From positions 32,001 through 96,000 of the IMG/VR virus record IMGVR_UViG_3300026488_000011: DNA of 64,000 nucleotides, one strand, 5' to 3'. Positions 4,142 to 23,637 of the stretch are shown piece after piece (position 1 is the first letter of the stretch; each line of letters opens with the position of its first letter). The DNA is from a virus. The notes beneath the pieces are model-generated. The model made no database searches, was not told the origin of the DNA, and saw only the letters and a list, made by a program, of their open reading frames with translations. Both the position numbers and the translations under genes were made by a program.

Positions 4142-6980
4142 TATTTTAGACGACATATCAAATCTACTTTATAACCCTAGTGCTATACAAAGTAAAGTAT
4201 TAGAACTCCTTAGTAAAGGAAGCGAAGGAAAAGTAGATATTCCTGATCCTACTAATCCTTTTGTTTTTCTTGTAGAGAGTAATGCATTAATAGGTTCAGG
4301 GATAGTGCAGGAGTTTGGAAACAACATTAAAAAACTCTACCCGCATTTAGCGGAGAATAAAGAGGACTTATATCATCATTTATCCGATAATGAATTACAA
4401 GATATATTTGCTAGTCCATCCACTGGTAAGTTTAGATTTTTCCTAAGTATCGATGAAATAAAAAACAATATACCACTTACTAACAATTATTACGAGCTAT
4501 TAATACCTAAATTAACTAAGATAACTGTGAATGATATAGTCTTCACTGTGTTAAACGATATAGTCATTAGGTACTACGATAGCAGAAAAACGTTTGTTAA
4601 ACTAGTAGGTAATAATATAGGAATTAGCCACGATAATGACATAATTTGTCCATCGGGTATAATTACTGATTCTAACCTGAATGAGTGGCTAATCTTTGAT
4701 GTGGATATTCAACAGTTGAACTATACGATTATAAACGATACTATCATAAATTCAAAACCTTTCTATAAAAGAATACCTATTGAGAATCAATATGCTTATG
4801 CAGAAGCATATGCGTATAGTCCTACGAATGGTAGCATGATTAAACTAAACAAAACGTATAGTAGTTTTGTGTATAATCCAGCTATTCCGACTGTCTACTT
4901 AAAGCCTATTGGTAAAGAGCTAATAGTAGAAATACCTTTAATCTATACGTCTAATAATGTAATCACAGGAGATTTTAAGTTAGATCTATTTACTACACAC
5001 GGTGAATTAGATATGCCTCTGGAAAACTATTCTATGTCAGATTTTAGCATTAGCTTTCCGGAAAATATAGATGATCCAAGATTTAAACCATTATTAAACA
5101 TGAATGTACTTACAAAAGGTATAGGGTTTACATATGGAGGTAGAAACGAGTTAACATTTGAAGAGCTAAAAAATAAGATTATTTATCACAGTACAGGTGA
5201 TAACTTACTACCTATCACAGAGGATGAAATAAAAGAAGAGTTAAGTCAAATAGGTTACGAATTAATTAACAAGGTAGATACAATTTTAGATAGAATCTAT
5301 ATAGCTGATAAAAAGATAAGCAGTTTAGGATTTGATGTAAATGTTCTAGCAGATGTTTTTTCAGAAAACATAGTGATAAGGGCTAACAACATAGATAACA
5401 TCTATATTAAACAGGATGGACCTAGATTAATTATAAATCCATTTACTGTGTTCGAACTAATGGAAGGTAAGTTAAGACCGTTAACTGTAACGGAGTTAGA
5501 AGAAATAAACGAAATGGAGAAGGATGAATTACTTACTCTCATTTCCCAGAAGAAATATTTTTACAATATATACAAATATGTATGTGACTTTGAGAATAAG
5601 TTAAAAGTAAGGGCGTATGATCTAAATATGCCTAGTGTATATAACAACCGAAATATAGTTATTAACAGTGGTTTGAATACACTCACTACCTTATCCAATT
5701 ATAAATTAACAAGATTGAAAGACGACTTCTATCTAACATTTACAATTAATCCAGATGAGAACTTTTTAAATCTAGACCTCAATAGTCTAAAAATCCAACT
5801 AACGTTATATGGAGAAAATGAGGGAGTAAAATATTCATTCTTTGGAGAAATTCTAGAAACAGAAACAGGATTAGTAGGTAGAGTAAAGATAAACACCACT
5901 GGTTATATAAACGAAGATGATAAAGTTGAACTAAGTAATTTCATATCTAGTTTAACAGTAGGTAGCTGTAACTTAATAAATGATGCTTACTTATTAATTT
6001 ACTCTACTACGAAATTAGCTAATGATAAGGATCTTACCTTACTATCGTTAGCAGAATCGGAAGATGTTCAGACAGTAATTTATAAAGAAGATCTGACCTT
6101 AGAATTCGGAAAGAGATTAACTTATCTATATACTAATTACGATGTTAACTACACTTCTAGAAAATATAAAACTTACGACGAAGATGTTTACTTAACATAT
6201 GAAGAAGATGTCTATGAACTAGATGAAACTGGTACTCCTAAGCTAATCCCGGTAGACACAGATGGAGACGGAGAACCTGATGATGTAGAATTCGTAATAT
6301 TACACAGAAAAGGAGATCCTGTATTAGACGATGAAGGGAAACCTATAATTGTACATAAAGCAGGAGATGTAGTGCTAGATGAAAATGGAGATCCTATAAT
6401 TGACTATGAATTAGGATTAGAACATATCCTAAATTTATTGCTTTTAGAGTATCCGATAAGAAGTGCTACAAATCCTGTTTACAGAGATTATAGAATAGCA
6501 TTATACAAAGAACTAACGTATACCGTTACTACTGAGCTAGATGATATTAACAGTAGGATACTAGAGAATACAGTAATTAAATTCAAACCTAGAAACAATT
6601 TAAGAGATGTTAAACTAGTGGTGAATGATACTATTTATTCAGTACCTAACTTTATAAATCCTGTTATTGATATCTATGTAGTTAACACAGTCCTCACACC
6701 TGACTTAAGTACTAACTTTAAATTAATAGCAGGACGCATATTACAAGAAGGTTTAAGAGAGAATAAGCGTATCTCAGAAATAACTGATGACATTACGAAA
6801 GCCCTAGGAGACAATGTAGTATCTGTTAAGATTTACAATACTGATAATATTGGCGATATCGATATTAAGACATATACTCCTGACAGTAGCAGGCTGGTAA
6901 TAGATAAAAGACTATCCATAGGATCAGATGGTACTTTACTACCAGAACTTAAAGTAGACGTAAATATTTATAATCTCTAG
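4134..6980 (+). CDS. large baseplate-type structural protein (phiKZ gp87-like)
   Basis: 948 aa; NPSAIQ, PTNPFVFLVE and LYPHLA N-terminal motifs, GGRNEL, and Asp-rich H-K-x-G-D-x-V-L-D repeats. Confidence 0.6.
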   Translation: MANILDDISNLLYNPSAIQSKVLELLSKGSEGKVDIPDPTNPFVFLVESNALIGSGIVQEFGNNIKKLYPHLAENKEDLYHHLSDNELQDIFASPSTGKFRFFLSIDEIKNNIPLTNNYYELLIPKLTKITVNDIVFTVLNDIVIRYYDSRKTFVKLVGNNIGISHDNDIICPSGIITDSNLNEWLIFDVDIQQLNYTIINDTIINSKPFYKRIPIENQYAYAEAYAYSPTNGSMIKLNKTYSSFVYNPAIPTVYLKPIGKELIVEIPLIYTSNNVITGDFKLDLFTTHGELDMPLENYSMSDFSISFPENIDDPRFKPLLNMNVLTKGIGFTYGGRNELTFEELKNKIIYHSTGDNLLPITEDEIKEELSQIGYELINKVDTILDRIYIADKKISSLGFDVNVLADVFSENIVIRANNIDNIYIKQDGPRLIINPFTVFELMEGKLRPLTVTELEEINEMEKDELLTLISQKKYFYNIYKYVCDFENKLKVRAYDLNMPSVYNNRNIVINSGLNTLTTLSNYKLTRLKDDFYLTFTINPDENFLNLDLNSLKIQLTLYGENEGVKYSFFGEILETETGLVGRVKINTTGYINEDDKVELSNFISSLTVGSCNLINDAYLLIYSTTKLANDKDLTLLSLAESEDVQTVIYKEDLTLEFGKRLTYLYTNYDVNYTSRKYKTYDEDVYLTYEEDVYELDETGTPKLIPVDTDGDGEPDDVEFVILHRKGDPVLDDEGKPIIVHKAGDVVLDENGDPIIDYELGLEHILNLLLLEYPIRSATNPVYRDYRIALYKELTYTVTTELDDINSRILENTVIKFKPRNNLRDVKLVVNDTIYSVPNFINPVIDIYVVNTVLTPDLSTNFKLIAGRILQEGLRENKRISEITDDITKALGDNVVSVKIYNTDNIGDIDIKTYTPDSSRLVIDKRLSIGSDGTLLPELKVDVNIYNL

Positions 6981-10738: not shown

Positions 10739-11134
10739 TTATTCCTCCTTAAATCCATTTAAGATATAACAGATAGCTCTGGCTTGATTAATAGGCGTTA
10801 CACCAAACATATCTGTAATGGTTTTATCTTTTGCCTTTTCTTTTATTTCTTCTAGCAACTCTGGTTTCTCTTTAAAATACTCTACCCATAGTTCTACGTA
10901 TTCTTTAAATAACTCTTGTTCGGACTTATTATTTAGAGGGGGTTTGTCTTTAGCTTCTTTCCAGTGGCTAACTTTACCTCTATAACCTTTTATATCTAAC
11001 TGATAAATCTCTTCAATGGACCTACCGTGATATCTTGTTAGACGAGCATAAAGAGCTGAATATCGTTTATCCCCTTTACTACTGCATTCGTAATAGGGTT
11101 CTCCTCTCTTAACTCTCCTAGCCCATCTGTAAAT
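10739..11134 (-). CDS. NADAR-like (putative ADP-ribosylhydrolase) domain with no canonical start; reached by -1 frameshift from the DNA polymerase or by an ATT start
   Basis: Hand-translated 131-codon frame: IYRWARRVKRGEPYYECSSKGDKRYSALYARLTRYHGRSIEEIYQLDIKGY...YVELWVEYFKEKPELLEEI...ITDMFGVTPINQARAICYIL. It fills the gap between flanking genes exactly. Motif order parallels NADAR (FSNF / EH-x-x-Q-x-x-K / KF-x-x-x-P-x-L / D-x-x-WG / N-x-LG). Confidence 0.7.
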   Translation of the reverse strand: MYRWARRVKRGEPYYECSSKGDKRYSALYARLTRYHGRSIEEIYQLDIKGYRGKVSHWKEAKDKPPLNNKSEQELFKEYVELWVEYFKEKPELLEEIKEKAKDKTITDMFGVTPINQARAICYILNGFKEE

Positions 11135-13302
11135 TACTTTTTTTCTTCTACTCCATTGTCAATTAGATCTATAACTTTTAATCCAGGTTTAATGTAATAC
11201 CCTAATGAGTTTAGGATCATGTATAAGACATTACAGTTATCTTTTACAACTTTGTCTATATCTATTACTGACATAATCTCTTCTGGGAATCCTTTGTTAT
11301 ATAGGTTTACTAATGGAAACTTAAATGTCTTTATTTCTGACTTGTTGTATTTTTTAAGGAACTCTTCAAATCTCTGCTTAAGCTCATTGTCTTTTATAGA
11401 GTCCAAGAAGTTTTTCATATCTGTTTTATTATTAATAGTCGTAGGAATTTTAAGAGCCATATATGTAGGCTCAGGAGCATGACCGTACTTAGGTGCAAAC
11501 ACTTCTTCCCATAGCAAGTATTGTAGATATGGTGTTTTAGAAATATCTGGTTCTTTATACGCATTAGCTTCTTTAATTTTCTCTAACTTCAATACTTCCG
11601 GAGAACCTTCTTGTATTTTAGTAATTATATGTTTCTCCATGTCTGCTACTTTCTTCACATATTTACGTAGTGATATTTTCTTGTTACTACCTACCTCACT
11701 CATAATCTCCATCATCATTTCGTCTGCTAACTTCCTTACTGGTCCATACGCAAATGATGCAATAAGATGTACTCCTTTCTTTTCTAAATCAGGTTCTTTA
11801 AACACGTTACCTTCCTGTATTCTCACGTTAGCGTAATAGTGTTTAGATACATCTGTATTTACAAATACATCCCAGAAAAACTCATTCTTCATTTCTAAGT
11901 TTTTAGCAGCGTCATAATCTAAGTTCATATTGGCTCCTAGGAGCTTAATATAGTGGTCGATTGCCTGCGTCGTAAATGTCATAATTGCTGCCGTAATGGA
12001 TACCGCGTCTTTATTAAATACCATCTGACCATCATTATACCACTCTACCCAGTTTTGATATGTAGCACAGGTAGAATCCGTATCTGATAGCACGATTACT
12101 TCTCTTAGCATATCTTTTATATATGCGATCGAAATTGGAAACACTTTAGTAACAAAAAATGTTTTTATCAAGTCTTCTTTTTCCTGGAACGACTGCATTA
12201 GTCTGTTAGCGGTAGAAGCTAATATCTCTACCGTGTCATCGTCTAACGCGTCTTCTCCATCTAAGACATATTTTCTTCCTCTCATTAAGTCAGATTCTAC
12301 ATGTAGTAGTAAGTTAGTAATCCAGCTAGGTATCGATTTTAGATAGTCTCTAGGATTATCTACTTTGATCGGTTTATACTTAATTATATCGTCTAACCAA
12401 CCCTTCATGAATTCAGGATTTAACTCCCGTAATTGGAATAGATCATTTACGTATGCAATAGCTGCTAATTCGAATCCCGATAGTGATTTCAGAAATTTAT
12501 ATATCTCTCTTTCCTTTTCTGTATGCTTCCAGTACGGTCTTGTATTTTTCTTAATTACATTTTCCATCACATAGTCAGGTGTAGGAATAGTAAGTCTATA
12601 CTTCCTTATTATTTCTTCTATCTTATCTACGTCTACTGAGGCTAATATAGCGGTAAGATGATTTAATGTTACTTCAGGGTTTCTATAGTGTCTATTACCG
12701 GATATCATTGATTCAGAGATGGCATTTCCTATACCAGCTACACATCTGGTAATTGAAGTAAGCGTATAATGTGCTGATGGATTATATAACACCGTACCGG
12801 CACTAGCATAAGCTCCTGATAGAGAGTTGTTTTTAATCTTCATGGATTTTTGCAATGTATTGTGGTAATTATGTTTTTCTATATCTCCATCCATTTTGTA
12901 TTTAAAAGCTAGTTTTTTATGTTTAGATCTTAAAGCAATGTTATCGCTAATAAATTCTGCATGTAGAGATTTTTTCTTTTTAGGATTAAAGTAAACTGTA
13001 AATGATGGTACTATTATATCTCCTTGTTGTTTAACATAGTTGATATAACCGATTAGTGTAGTGATTTGATTATTTAGAATCTTACCATCCAATGTTCTTT
13101 CTCTAAACTTAACTCTAGGGTTTTTTATTTTACCTTGTTCTTTAAACTCTTGCAATTTCTTTTTTACTAGTTTTTTAGATTCTGGAAATGGTATATCTTT
13201 TTTCTTAGTTATATAAATAGCTGCTTGTTCTATGTAATCACTTATTGGATCCATATGTGGTTTATAATCTTCAGGTCTTAGCTTAAATATATCTGACATC
13301 AT
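11134..13302 (-). CDS. family-B DNA polymerase, catalytic subunit of the split phiKZ-type polymerase (gp82-like)
   Basis: Motif B-like MKIKNNSLSGA, motif C-like LSDTDST, then KHYYA and LEKKGVHL; 722 aa with no exonuclease domain. Confidence 0.9.
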   Translation of the reverse strand: MMSDIFKLRPEDYKPHMDPISDYIEQAAIYITKKKDIPFPESKKLVKKKLQEFKEQGKIKNPRVKFRERTLDGKILNNQITTLIGYINYVKQQGDIIVPSFTVYFNPKKKKSLHAEFISDNIALRSKHKKLAFKYKMDGDIEKHNYHNTLQKSMKIKNNSLSGAYASAGTVLYNPSAHYTLTSITRCVAGIGNAISESMISGNRHYRNPEVTLNHLTAILASVDVDKIEEIIRKYRLTIPTPDYVMENVIKKNTRPYWKHTEKEREIYKFLKSLSGFELAAIAYVNDLFQLRELNPEFMKGWLDDIIKYKPIKVDNPRDYLKSIPSWITNLLLHVESDLMRGRKYVLDGEDALDDDTVEILASTANRLMQSFQEKEDLIKTFFVTKVFPISIAYIKDMLREVIVLSDTDSTCATYQNWVEWYNDGQMVFNKDAVSITAAIMTFTTQAIDHYIKLLGANMNLDYDAAKNLEMKNEFFWDVFVNTDVSKHYYANVRIQEGNVFKEPDLEKKGVHLIASFAYGPVRKLADEMMMEIMSEVGSNKKISLRKYVKKVADMEKHIITKIQEGSPEVLKLEKIKEANAYKEPDISKTPYLQYLLWEEVFAPKYGHAPEPTYMALKIPTTINNKTDMKNFLDSIKDNELKQRFEEFLKKYNKSEIKTFKFPLVNLYNKGFPEEIMSVIDIDKVVKDNCNVLYMILNSLGYYIKPGLKVIDLIDNGVEEKK

Positions 13303-13440
13303 TTAGTCCTTTATAGGTTCTATGCATTCTATAAACCATTGGTGATATTTGATAACCAAACTTTTTTAATCGGATTAAAATCTGTTGATCTTTAAATAAG
13401 ATGTTAGGGAACATATCAAAATCTCTCTATAGATATAGAA

Positions 13441-13632
13441 GAGTGCGATCACTGTTCTTAGTAGGCCTGGACAACCTACGACCGTGTCATCTTAGCTATC
13501 GCTCTCGGTGATCCTGCCTCTCTGAGGTGGGGTCATCGAGGGTGGTAGTAGAGAAACCATTAGCTGGTGGGAATCACGGGGGAGCAGAGGGGGAGGTCTA
13601 TGTCCGGGTGGGGGCGGGTGTAGGGAAGGACA
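13441..13632 (+). ncRNA. putative structured non-coding RNA with G-quadruplex motif
   Basis: GC-rich intergenic island. A 14-bp hairpin at 13507-13537 has four G-U pairs that favour the + strand; stem 13441-13449/13498-13506; GGG-T-GGGGG-C-GGG-TGTA-GGG at 13606-13625 enclosed by a 5-bp stem. Confidence 0.55.
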
Positions 13633-13772
13633 ATACAATCCAATGTTTAACCGATTAGCAAAACTATTTGAACGAAGTGAGAATACTCTGTAAAGAGTAA
13701 ATAAGAAAAAGAAAAAATAAAGATAGAAATATTAGGAATAGAGAAGAAAGTACTAGAGCAGTGTAGATAAGG

Positions 13773-13798
13773 ATAGATAGGAACTATATCCTATCTAT
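13773..13798. terminator. terminator hairpin
   Basis: 10-bp stem ATAGATAGGA/TCCTATCTAT at the end of 13791-14078. Confidence 0.7.
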
Positions 13799-14078
13799 TT
13801 GACTTTATGTACTGTATGAGATCATCAAGTTCATAAACTGTTAAGTTAGATGTGAGAAATGATAAGAATGTTTCACTAAACATCCTATGTCTTTGTTCTA
13901 ATAGTTGTGGAATGTGATAGATTAACCTGTTTGACAGATCAGGGTTATCTGGATTATATATCTCTCTAAGGTATGAGGCTGAGGAAATGTTAATAAGTGT
14001 TGATTCTAATAGATGAGGTAGTAGATTATTATCAGACAGATATTTTACTAAGGTAAGTAAATCTTTATCCGTAAACAT
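13791..14078 (-). CDS. hypothetical protein
   Basis: 95 aa ORF with no clear RBS; overlapped by the 14048-14155 ORF. Confidence 0.55.
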   Translation of the reverse strand: MFTDKDLLTLVKYLSDNNLLPHLLESTLINISSASYLREIYNPDNPDLSNRLIYHIPQLLEQRHRMFSETFLSFLTSNLTVYELDDLIQYIKSNR

Positions 14079-22983: not shown

Positions 22984-23637
22984 CTAACATTCTTTAGGTC
23001 TAACGATAAACTCATACGTCTTTGTTAGGTCATCGAATACAATTTCTAGGATCTCTGTTTCCTCGTCATAGAGTGGAGGGAACTCATTGCCTGGTTTTGG
23101 TTTATAATTGCTTCTATCTAATTGAGTTGTTTGCGGTCGTGTTTGCTGTCTTGGTTGTGCAGGCTGTTGAGGCTGTTGATTTTGATATCCCATAGGTGGC
23201 GGCGCAGCAGTAGTTGCACCAGGTCCCATATTCTGGTAAGCAGGTTGCCCTATCGCCACCCCACCTGTACCAACATTAGGTCTCTGATATCCCATTGGTG
23301 CCGGTGCGATGGTAGGGCCCATAGGATTCATGGTTGGAGGCAAACCTCCTCCTTGAAACATTGGTCTAGGGCTTTGACCTGGATACATTGGTTGTTGGTA
23401 TCCTTGTTGTTGTGGATATTGAGGTGGATACATGGGTTGCTGATATCCTTGCTGGGGCATCGGTTGTCCCATAGGCGGCGGCTGCATTCCCATATTTACA
23501 GGCTGTCCCGCTGGCTGCTGATAACTTTGTTGTCTATATTGCTGATACGCTCCTGGTTTTGGACCAGGTTGTTGATTAGGGTATTGACCTGGTTGGCCAT
23601 AGCCAGGTTGTCCCCATTGATTTTGGTTGTTCCACAT
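22984..23637 (-). CDS. Q/P/G/Y-rich low-complexity (prion-like) protein with short folded C-terminus
   Basis: About 175 aa of Q/P/G/Y/M repeats (QGYQQPMYP twice), then YKPKPGNEFPPLYD...; AAGGAG RBS. Confidence 0.75.
   Translation of the reverse strand: MWNNQNQWGQPGYGQPGQYPNQQPGPKPGAYQQYRQQSYQQPAGQPVNMGMQPPPMGQPMPQQGYQQPMYPPQYPQQQGYQQPMYPGQSPRPMFQGGGLPPTMNPMGPTIAPAPMGYQRPNVGTGGVAIGQPAYQNMGPGATTAAPPPMGYQNQQPQQPAQPRQQTRPQTTQLDRSNYKPKPGNEFPPLYDEETEILEIVFDDLTKTYEFIVRPKEC

Follow-up and report, generated by a model that had tools for sequence, protein, structure and literature searches.

Primer and origin transcripts are known from several systems, among them RNA II of ColE1, the mitochondrial LSP/CSBII RNA and the R-loops of T4 oriF and oriG. 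The phage RNA described here resembles these in that it is non-coding, carries G-rich unpaired stretches and lies beside replication genes, in a genome with an RNase H and without a recognisable primase. As in ColE1 RNA II, a folded 5' domain precedes a stretch that is able to hybridise. It differs from all of them in that its fold and sequence are unrelated to theirs, it is known from sequence alone, and it is not conserved across other primase-less relatives of the phage that encodes it.

Complex pseudoknotted RNAs that belong to no family are rare, and they have repeatedly led to guide-RNA scaffolds, ribozymes and RNA assemblies. Like GOLLD, ROOL, raiA and OLE, the RNA reported here is a structured, phage-borne non-coding RNA that can be recognised only by comparative analysis; unlike them it has no Rfam match, is far smaller (with a core of about 190 nt), carries G-rich tracts and occurs in two genomes only. 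With the pRNA of phi29 (120–170 nt) it shares a phage origin, a three-way junction and loops able to pair between molecules, but it belongs to a phiKZ-type phage and its replication module, and it has a pseudoknot and G-tracts, both of which are lacking in pRNA. The use of GC-rich islands to detect RNA genes in AT-rich thermophile genomes is a principle reportedly introduced by Klein, Misulovin and Eddy in 2002. The locus studied here follows the same pattern, with two copies of the RNA making up the top two GC islands of a genome of 33% G+C, although that principle is a detection method and not a family or a function. Among nucleus-forming jumbo phages, the non-coding RNAs closest in context are sRNA005 of 201phi2-1 and the gp182-leader sRNA of phiKZ, which are short and derive from 5' UTRs upstream of a tail gene (PMC11512511). 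The RNA described here is likewise a non-coding RNA of a nucleus-forming jumbo phage, but differs from both in being stand-alone, pseudoknotted, encoded on the opposite strand and located in the replication module. It provides a precise, testable fold for a new class of RNA from such a phage, probably of a warm environment, where RNA biology is almost unstudied.

Source phage and genomic setting

The stretch of DNA analysed here (the window) comprises 64,000 nucleotides, bases 32001–96000 of a 185,491-bp IMG/VR virus record with terminal repeats. The source is an uncultured phiKZ-type giant phage, as indicated by its divergent DNA polymerase and its gp28-like vertex protein. The polymerase gene (11134–13302, minus strand) encodes a phiKZ-type divergent family B enzyme (PF20286, E 3e-186; phrog_2927), and the genes for the gp28-like vertex protein and a MazG-like protein are found near it. 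All isolated phages are distant relatives, the top polymerase identity being 34%. An IVYWREL fraction of 0.424 and a charged-minus-polar value of 7.9% in the proteins of the source phage hint at a host that is moderately thermophilic, or at a warm setting. By a formula relating it to temperature, this IVYWREL fraction would correspond to approximately 63°C.

The RNA lies in a 488-nt gap between the start codon of the polymerase gene, at 13302, and a 95-aa open reading frame (ORF) at 13791–14078, both of which are on the minus strand. It is thus divergent from the polymerase gene. Only 42 of 190 called genes are on the plus strand, which places the RNA unit on the minority strand.

The GC-rich island and the strand of the RNA

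The earlier note on this DNA, made by reading the sequence without database searches, had pointed to a GC-rich island in an AT-rich genome. The contrast is indeed strong, with 55–60% G+C over positions 13450–13650 as against 25–35% in the flanks, in a genome of 33% G+C. The two highest GC islands of the entire genome are this one, which we call copy A, and one at 5836–6112, which contains a second copy of the RNA (copy B). The next GC peak of the window (56–58%) is at 23118–23598.

The plus strand of copy A folds at −90.3 kcal/mol, with a z-score of −4.8 relative to shuffled sequences, whereas the minus strand reaches −50 kcal/mol and a z-score of −0.55, i.e. no excess structure. Across copies A and B and a third copy from a sister phage (copy C), the folding z-scores are −3.3 to −4.0 for the plus strand and −0.1 to −2.3 for the minus strand. 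Approximately one in five base pairs of the fold is G-U. The RNA is assigned to the plus strand on the basis of these G-U pairs and z-scores, which extends to all three copies the argument that the earlier note had drawn from G-U pairing in one. It is very probable that this is a real structured RNA gene of the plus strand, with positions 13440–13632 as the core of a stand-alone gene for an RNA of about 190 nt. The span of 13441–13561 originally proposed is too short, as helix P3 closes at 13575–13579, the pseudoknot partner lies at 13601–13608 and the G-tract runs to about 13625.

Searches against known RNA families

No match was obtained at the gathering threshold when the whole window was searched with the 4227 models of Rfam 15. 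With the E-value relaxed to 10, copies A, B and C gave just microRNA-like hairpin matches, far under threshold, and the Rfam searches matched none of the phi29 pRNA, riboswitch and ribozyme families. ARAGORN found no tRNA or tmRNA in the window or in the whole genome of either the source or the sister phage. The earlier note, which had seen no tRNA, tmRNA or riboswitch here and had suggested an Rfam search, was therefore right in this respect, and its proposal of a novel plus-strand phage non-coding RNA has held up, since no known family matches and conserved, covarying homologues exist. It had named the lack of such homologues as evidence against the RNA, and two, copies B and C, were found. 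From the genomes searched, the RNA is a previously undescribed class restricted to copies A, B and C in two uncultured genomes.

Several specific identities can be set aside. A template RNA of the retron, DGR or telomerase-like type would need a reverse transcriptase, and the 185-kb genome has no RVT_1 match. For a type III toxin-antitoxin RNA (ToxI-like), tandem repeats are absent from 13300–13900, and Pfam, PHROG and PADLOC gave no match for a 157-aa ORF that follows the RNA in the sister phage. Against a phi29-type pRNA stand the lack of an Rfam match and the phiKZ type of the phage.

Helices and covariation

The fold begins with a hairpin, P2 (13461–13465/13475–13479), of 5–7 bp in the three copies, in which three of five aligned pairs have changed on both sides. 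This is the GTAGG/CCTAC pairing of the earlier note, now seen to be a conserved, covarying hairpin. It is followed by a three-way junction domain (13482–13579) closed by P3 (13482–13486/13575–13579; 4–5 bp), which has two variable positions, one alternating between G-C and U-G and the other among U-A, C-G and A-U. The largest element of the domain is the P4 rod (13495–13520/13524–13549), of 26 bp with eight G-U pairs in copy A, 30 bp in copy B and 24 bp in copy C. Fourteen of its 26 aligned pairs have changed on both sides, and its tip, CTGCCTC-NNN-GAGGT, is invariant. A 14-bp hairpin with four G-U pairs had been drawn at 13507–13537; that pairing is real, but it is only the tip of the 26-bp rod. 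The second arm is P5 (13557–13561/13566–13570; 5–7 bp), which has an invariant, self-complementary AGCT (AGCU) loop. Its stem shows compensation from A-U to G-C and contains two U-G pairs, both of which would be mismatched if the opposite strand folded.

Taken together, the nested helices comprise 41 pairs, in which 98.4% of cells are paired across the three copies and 21 of the 41 pairs have changed on both sides, though these covariation counts are few, coming from three sequences on an alignment fitted to the structure model, which favours the model somewhat. None of 500 shuffles was as good in nested-pair score, and sliding the partners out of register reduced the paired fraction to 38–48%. 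Copies A and B are 70% identical and have no ORF, yet both are fully paired.

Two stems of the original drawing fared less well. The long-range stem 13441–13449/13498–13506 competes with the covarying base of P4; only 78% of its cells are paired, and 61 of 500 shuffles equalled it. The hairpin at 13541–13561 does not stand as drawn, because its CCATT arm (13557–13561) pairs downstream with 13566–13570 to form P5. Pairing of this 5' arm of P5 upstream, with the end of the 3' strand of P4, is possible in all three copies (87% of cells), and could be an alternative conformer or switch.

The pseudoknot

A systematic stem search showed that the P2 loop (13466–13473) pairs with a segment approximately 130 nt downstream (13601–13608), forming a pseudoknot that was absent from the earlier drawing. 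It has 8 bp in copy A, 9 bp in copy B and 9 bp in copy C, and occupies the same relative place in all three, even though the loop sequences are unrelated. The P2 loops are specific: with the 3' domain of the same copy they form 8, 9 and 9 bp in A, B and C, respectively, as against 4–6 bp with those of the other copies. Shuffling gives a frequency of roughly 0.01–0.02 per copy for such a stem arising by chance. The shared position, the copy-specific fit and this 1–2% shuffle rate together give strong comparative evidence that the pseudoknot is part of the shared fold.

Conserved unpaired elements

In addition to the helices, several unpaired elements are conserved. At the 5' edge of the fold is a 10-mer, TGCGATCACT (in RNA letters UGCGAUCACU; 13444–13453, plus strand), that is identical in copies A, B and C. 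The string GCGATCAC occurs three times in 185 kb, and two of these occurrences are in copies of the RNA. The TCACT of the 10-mer could pair with GGTGG of the G-tract; since both sides are invariant, there is no covariation signal for this pairing. Within the three-way junction, the nucleotides GA, UCA and AAU are conserved and unpaired. The AGCU loop of P5, being self-complementary, could allow self-association of the RNA.

P3 and the pseudoknot are joined by an unpaired purine strand (13580–13600, plus strand), whose length is exactly 21 nt in A, B and C alike. Its core, GGAG[C/T]AGAGG, is conserved, and it contains two GGAG(G) boxes that look like Shine-Dalgarno sequences and resemble the AAGGAG ribosome sites of the source phage. 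The stem search found no conserved pairing partner for this strand. A helix between the leader and the purine strand (CUCUCU with AGAGGG) can form in copies A and B but not in C, and was left out of the core. Further on is a G-tract (13606–13625, plus strand), which in copy A fits the canonical G-quadruplex motif. All copies have the pattern GGNGG(A)GGGYGGG, and in B and C (GG-N-GG-A-GGG-Y-GGG) it allows only two tiers. The tract could pair with the 10-mer instead of forming a quadruplex. ViennaRNA with quadruplex energies predicts a G-quadruplex in copies A, B and C, with gains of 14.8, 4.2 and 1.8 kcal/mol, respectively.

Copies and distribution

Copy B is a paralogue at approximately 5.8–6.1 kb of the 185-kb source genome, on the same strand as copy A and, like it, between minus-strand genes. 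It is not beside the polymerase gene, but is one gene away from the gene for a 512-aa helicase. Copy C is the orthologue in a collinear 186-kb sister phage, which was reached by a polymerase-guided search and whose polymerase is 67% identical. Like copy A, it lies upstream of the polymerase gene and points away from it. When copy A was the only sequence in the model, B was retrieved with 70.6 bits and C with 56.6 bits; across the source and sister genomes, nhmmer and two covariance models detect A, B and C and no others. Core identity is 70% between A and B, 60% between A and C, and 53% between B and C, suggesting that B is probably a duplicate made within the lineage of the source phage. Where B lies in the source genome, the sister phage carries two other ORFs and no copy of the RNA. 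A 433-aa ORF beside the helicase-region genes of the sister phage (L079 2450–3751, minus strand) has no counterpart at that spot in the source genome.

Beyond these two phages the RNA was not found. There was no blastn match among GenBank phages, and exact and gapped motif scans of IMG/VR recovered only the sister phage, the remaining matches being coding sequences or terminators. A scan of JGI metagenomes gave the sister phage and one chance match bearing sequencing adapters, and a scan of 185,579 cellular genomes gave one chance match, which the covariance model rejected. No copy was detected in 39 polymerase loci by GC-island scan, nhmmer or covariance model, or by the covariance model in ten related phage records that were searched whole and whose polymerases are 45–55% identical. 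Closer polymerase relatives (64%, 57% and 55% identity) are represented by proteins only, and the search for the RNA covered the 39 loci and the ten records. In one distant relative (L060 5644–5836) there is a GC island of 54%, as against 28%, just downstream of the polymerase gene, which has the appearance of a short ORF on the minus strand and not of an RNA homologue.

The transcription unit

A motif, ATATC[A/T]A[A/T]AT (13413–13422, plus strand, in copy A), precedes all three copies; its distance to the invariant 10-mer is 31 nt in both A and C, but 54 nt in B. Matches to this ATATCAAAAT-like motif are not enriched upstream of other genes, so it is not a general motif, and it is possibly a promoter element of the RNA unit. 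The chmA-type ATATATTAC motif, considered as a shared phage promoter, is absent upstream of the RNA.

Downstream of the core of copy A is a purine- and AT-rich non-coding tail (13640–13770, plus strand) with a GAACGAAGTGAG box at 13670–13681. The box and the surrounding tail similarity are common to A and B, and absent from C. AT skew in the tail reaches +0.49 and GC skew +0.54, opposite to the flanking genes. There is no conserved peptide frame in the tail, the best being a 16-codon frame in A that is not present in B, and the ORF list contains no plus-strand ORF between copy A and the terminator. The latter is a hairpin at 13771–13800 with a 12-bp stem followed by a T-rich run, terminator-like on the plus strand only; the suggestion that a hairpin at 13773–13798 might end the transcript thus agrees well with what was found. 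The transcript probably ends here, which would give it a length of around 350–380 nt. This hairpin overlaps the stop codon (13791–13793) of the convergent 95-aa ORF on the minus strand, and so might stop transcripts arriving from either side.

In the sister phage, the RNA is followed on the same strand by a spacer of approximately 60 nt with an AAAGGA ribosome site, then by a 157-aa ORF (L005 3124–3597, minus strand, equivalent to L009 1774–2247, plus strand), and then by a homologous terminator hairpin that closes the RNA-plus-ORF unit. The ORF is rich in lysine and glutamate, occupies this place between RNA and terminator in the sister phage only, and has no Pfam, PHROG, PADLOC or phage homologue. 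Its ACT- or KH-like fold neighbours in the Atlas had TM scores below 0.5 and were counted as no evidence. The protein may be a partner of the RNA. Part of the copy A tail, 13712–13735, is identical at 22 of 24 bases to the interior of this ORF, which suggests that the tail may be an ORF remnant. The likely history, judging from these alignments, is an original unit of RNA, ORF and terminator, followed by decay of the ORF in the source lineage and then by duplication. That copies A and B, which have no ORF, have kept the structure by way of many compensatory changes implies that the RNA has a function of its own.

Possible functions

The reading we rank first, and favour tentatively, is that the RNA is an independently transcribed, trans-acting accessory RNA. 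Transcription would run away from the polymerase gene and end at the hairpin at 13771–13800. During synthesis P2 would form, followed by the three-way junction with P3, the P4 rod and P5, after which the segment some 130 nt on would pair with the whole P2 loop, so that the pseudoknot would fix the 3' domain to the 5' hairpin. Four conserved elements would be left exposed, namely the 10-mer UGCGAUCACU, the AGCU loop, the 21-nt purine strand with its GGAG boxes and the G-tract. These would make up the working surface by which the RNA serves a bound partner as scaffold, decoy or sponge, the candidate partner being a protein or a pyrimidine-rich nucleic acid. The comparisons above show that the RNA exists and establish its strand, fold, copy number and restricted distribution; the trans action, the partner and the ends of the transcript are inferred. 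The unit has the accessory layout of a moron: it runs against its neighbours, on the minority strand, and has a putative promoter region and a terminator of its own. Its distribution also has an accessory character, with two copies in the source phage, one in the sister phage and none in the 39 polymerase loci or ten related records. As copy B is not beside the polymerase gene, direct control of the polymerase, which the earlier note had suggested, is unlikely to be the whole story. Against the accessory reading, the placing of copies among replication genes and the unpaired G-clusters would suit a role in replication at least as well.

Ranked second, and unlikely though the strongest of the alternatives, is a replication primer or R-loop origin transcript; the primer role had been suggested in the earlier note and gains circumstantial support. 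Here the 5' domain would stay folded while the G-clusters and purine tail re-anneal to the C/T-rich template, and the resulting stable RNA-DNA hybrid would be trimmed by a phage RNase H of the Rhc type and extended by the split polymerase. The RNA does have unpaired G-runs without complementary C-tracts, followed by a tail with strong purine skew, and copies A and C abut the polymerase gene while B is one gene from the helicase gene. The genome has no match to the DnaG-Toprim or archaeo-eukaryotic primase families and does have an RNase H1 domain, at the start of a 469-aa open frame (G000:C1:129577–130134, plus strand, outside the window) that probably encodes the RNase H-clamp (Rhc) known from nucleus-forming phages. 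In phiKZ-type phages, which are without a primase, priming by their RNA polymerases or from RNA-DNA hybrids has been suggested (PMC7824862; PMC13648698). The unit described here, G-rich, non-coding and next to the polymerase gene, is a concrete candidate for such a primase-less start of DNA synthesis. However, the RNA is absent from all other primase-less relatives searched, and so is not a general solution, and an elaborate covarying pseudoknot exceeds the needs of a primer. Moreover, copy C lacks the purine tail and has a protein gene in the same transcription unit, the GC skew tracks the orientation of the genes and so gives no sign of an origin, and iterons (TAGAGA-like repeats) are not enriched near the copies. 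In a more specific form of this proposal, a nucleus-forming phage without a primase would use the RNA as a dedicated priming device: the 5' domain would position the G-cluster and purine RNA, an R-loop would form by the polymerase gene and a second near the helicase gene, and the polymerase-bound RNase H would turn the hybrid into a primer. We consider this marginally less probable again; if true, it would give the phiKZ group its first mapped origin of replication and mechanism of priming.

That the RNA is a cis-acting 5' leader, riboswitch-like or protein-binding, with A and B as leaders that have outlived their ORF, appears improbable. The arrangement in the sister phage, with the RNA in front of an AAAGGA spacer, the 157-aa ORF and a terminator, speaks for a leader, and the RNA could act in cis there; the 22/24 match of the copy A tail to the ORF interior and the homologous terminators fit the same idea. 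On the other hand, A and B have no conserved downstream ORF and still keep the structure by many compensatory changes, no terminator/antiterminator or element masking the ribosome site was seen in copy C, and none of the three copies matches a riboswitch family of Rfam.

Still less probable is a new ribozyme, self-cleaving or otherwise catalytic, in which pseudoknot and junction would shape an active site out of the unpaired nucleotides that never vary. Ribozymes typically have compact, pseudoknotted folds whose junctions and loops hold invariant nucleotides, but ribozyme families are unmatched even at E-values up to 10, the junction carries no hammerhead core motifs when the aligned sequences are read by eye, and no candidate cleavage site can be named.

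Finally, it is very improbable that the element acts at the DNA level, with hairpins of a single strand or a G-quadruplex serving as a signal for origin function, recombination or packaging: the quadruplex motif and strand asymmetry are also properties of DNA and the copies share one orientation, but around 20% of the pairs are G-U, which are kept on one strand only and would be weak as G-T in DNA, compensatory changes maintain the pseudoknot and three-way junction, and a plus-strand terminator follows.
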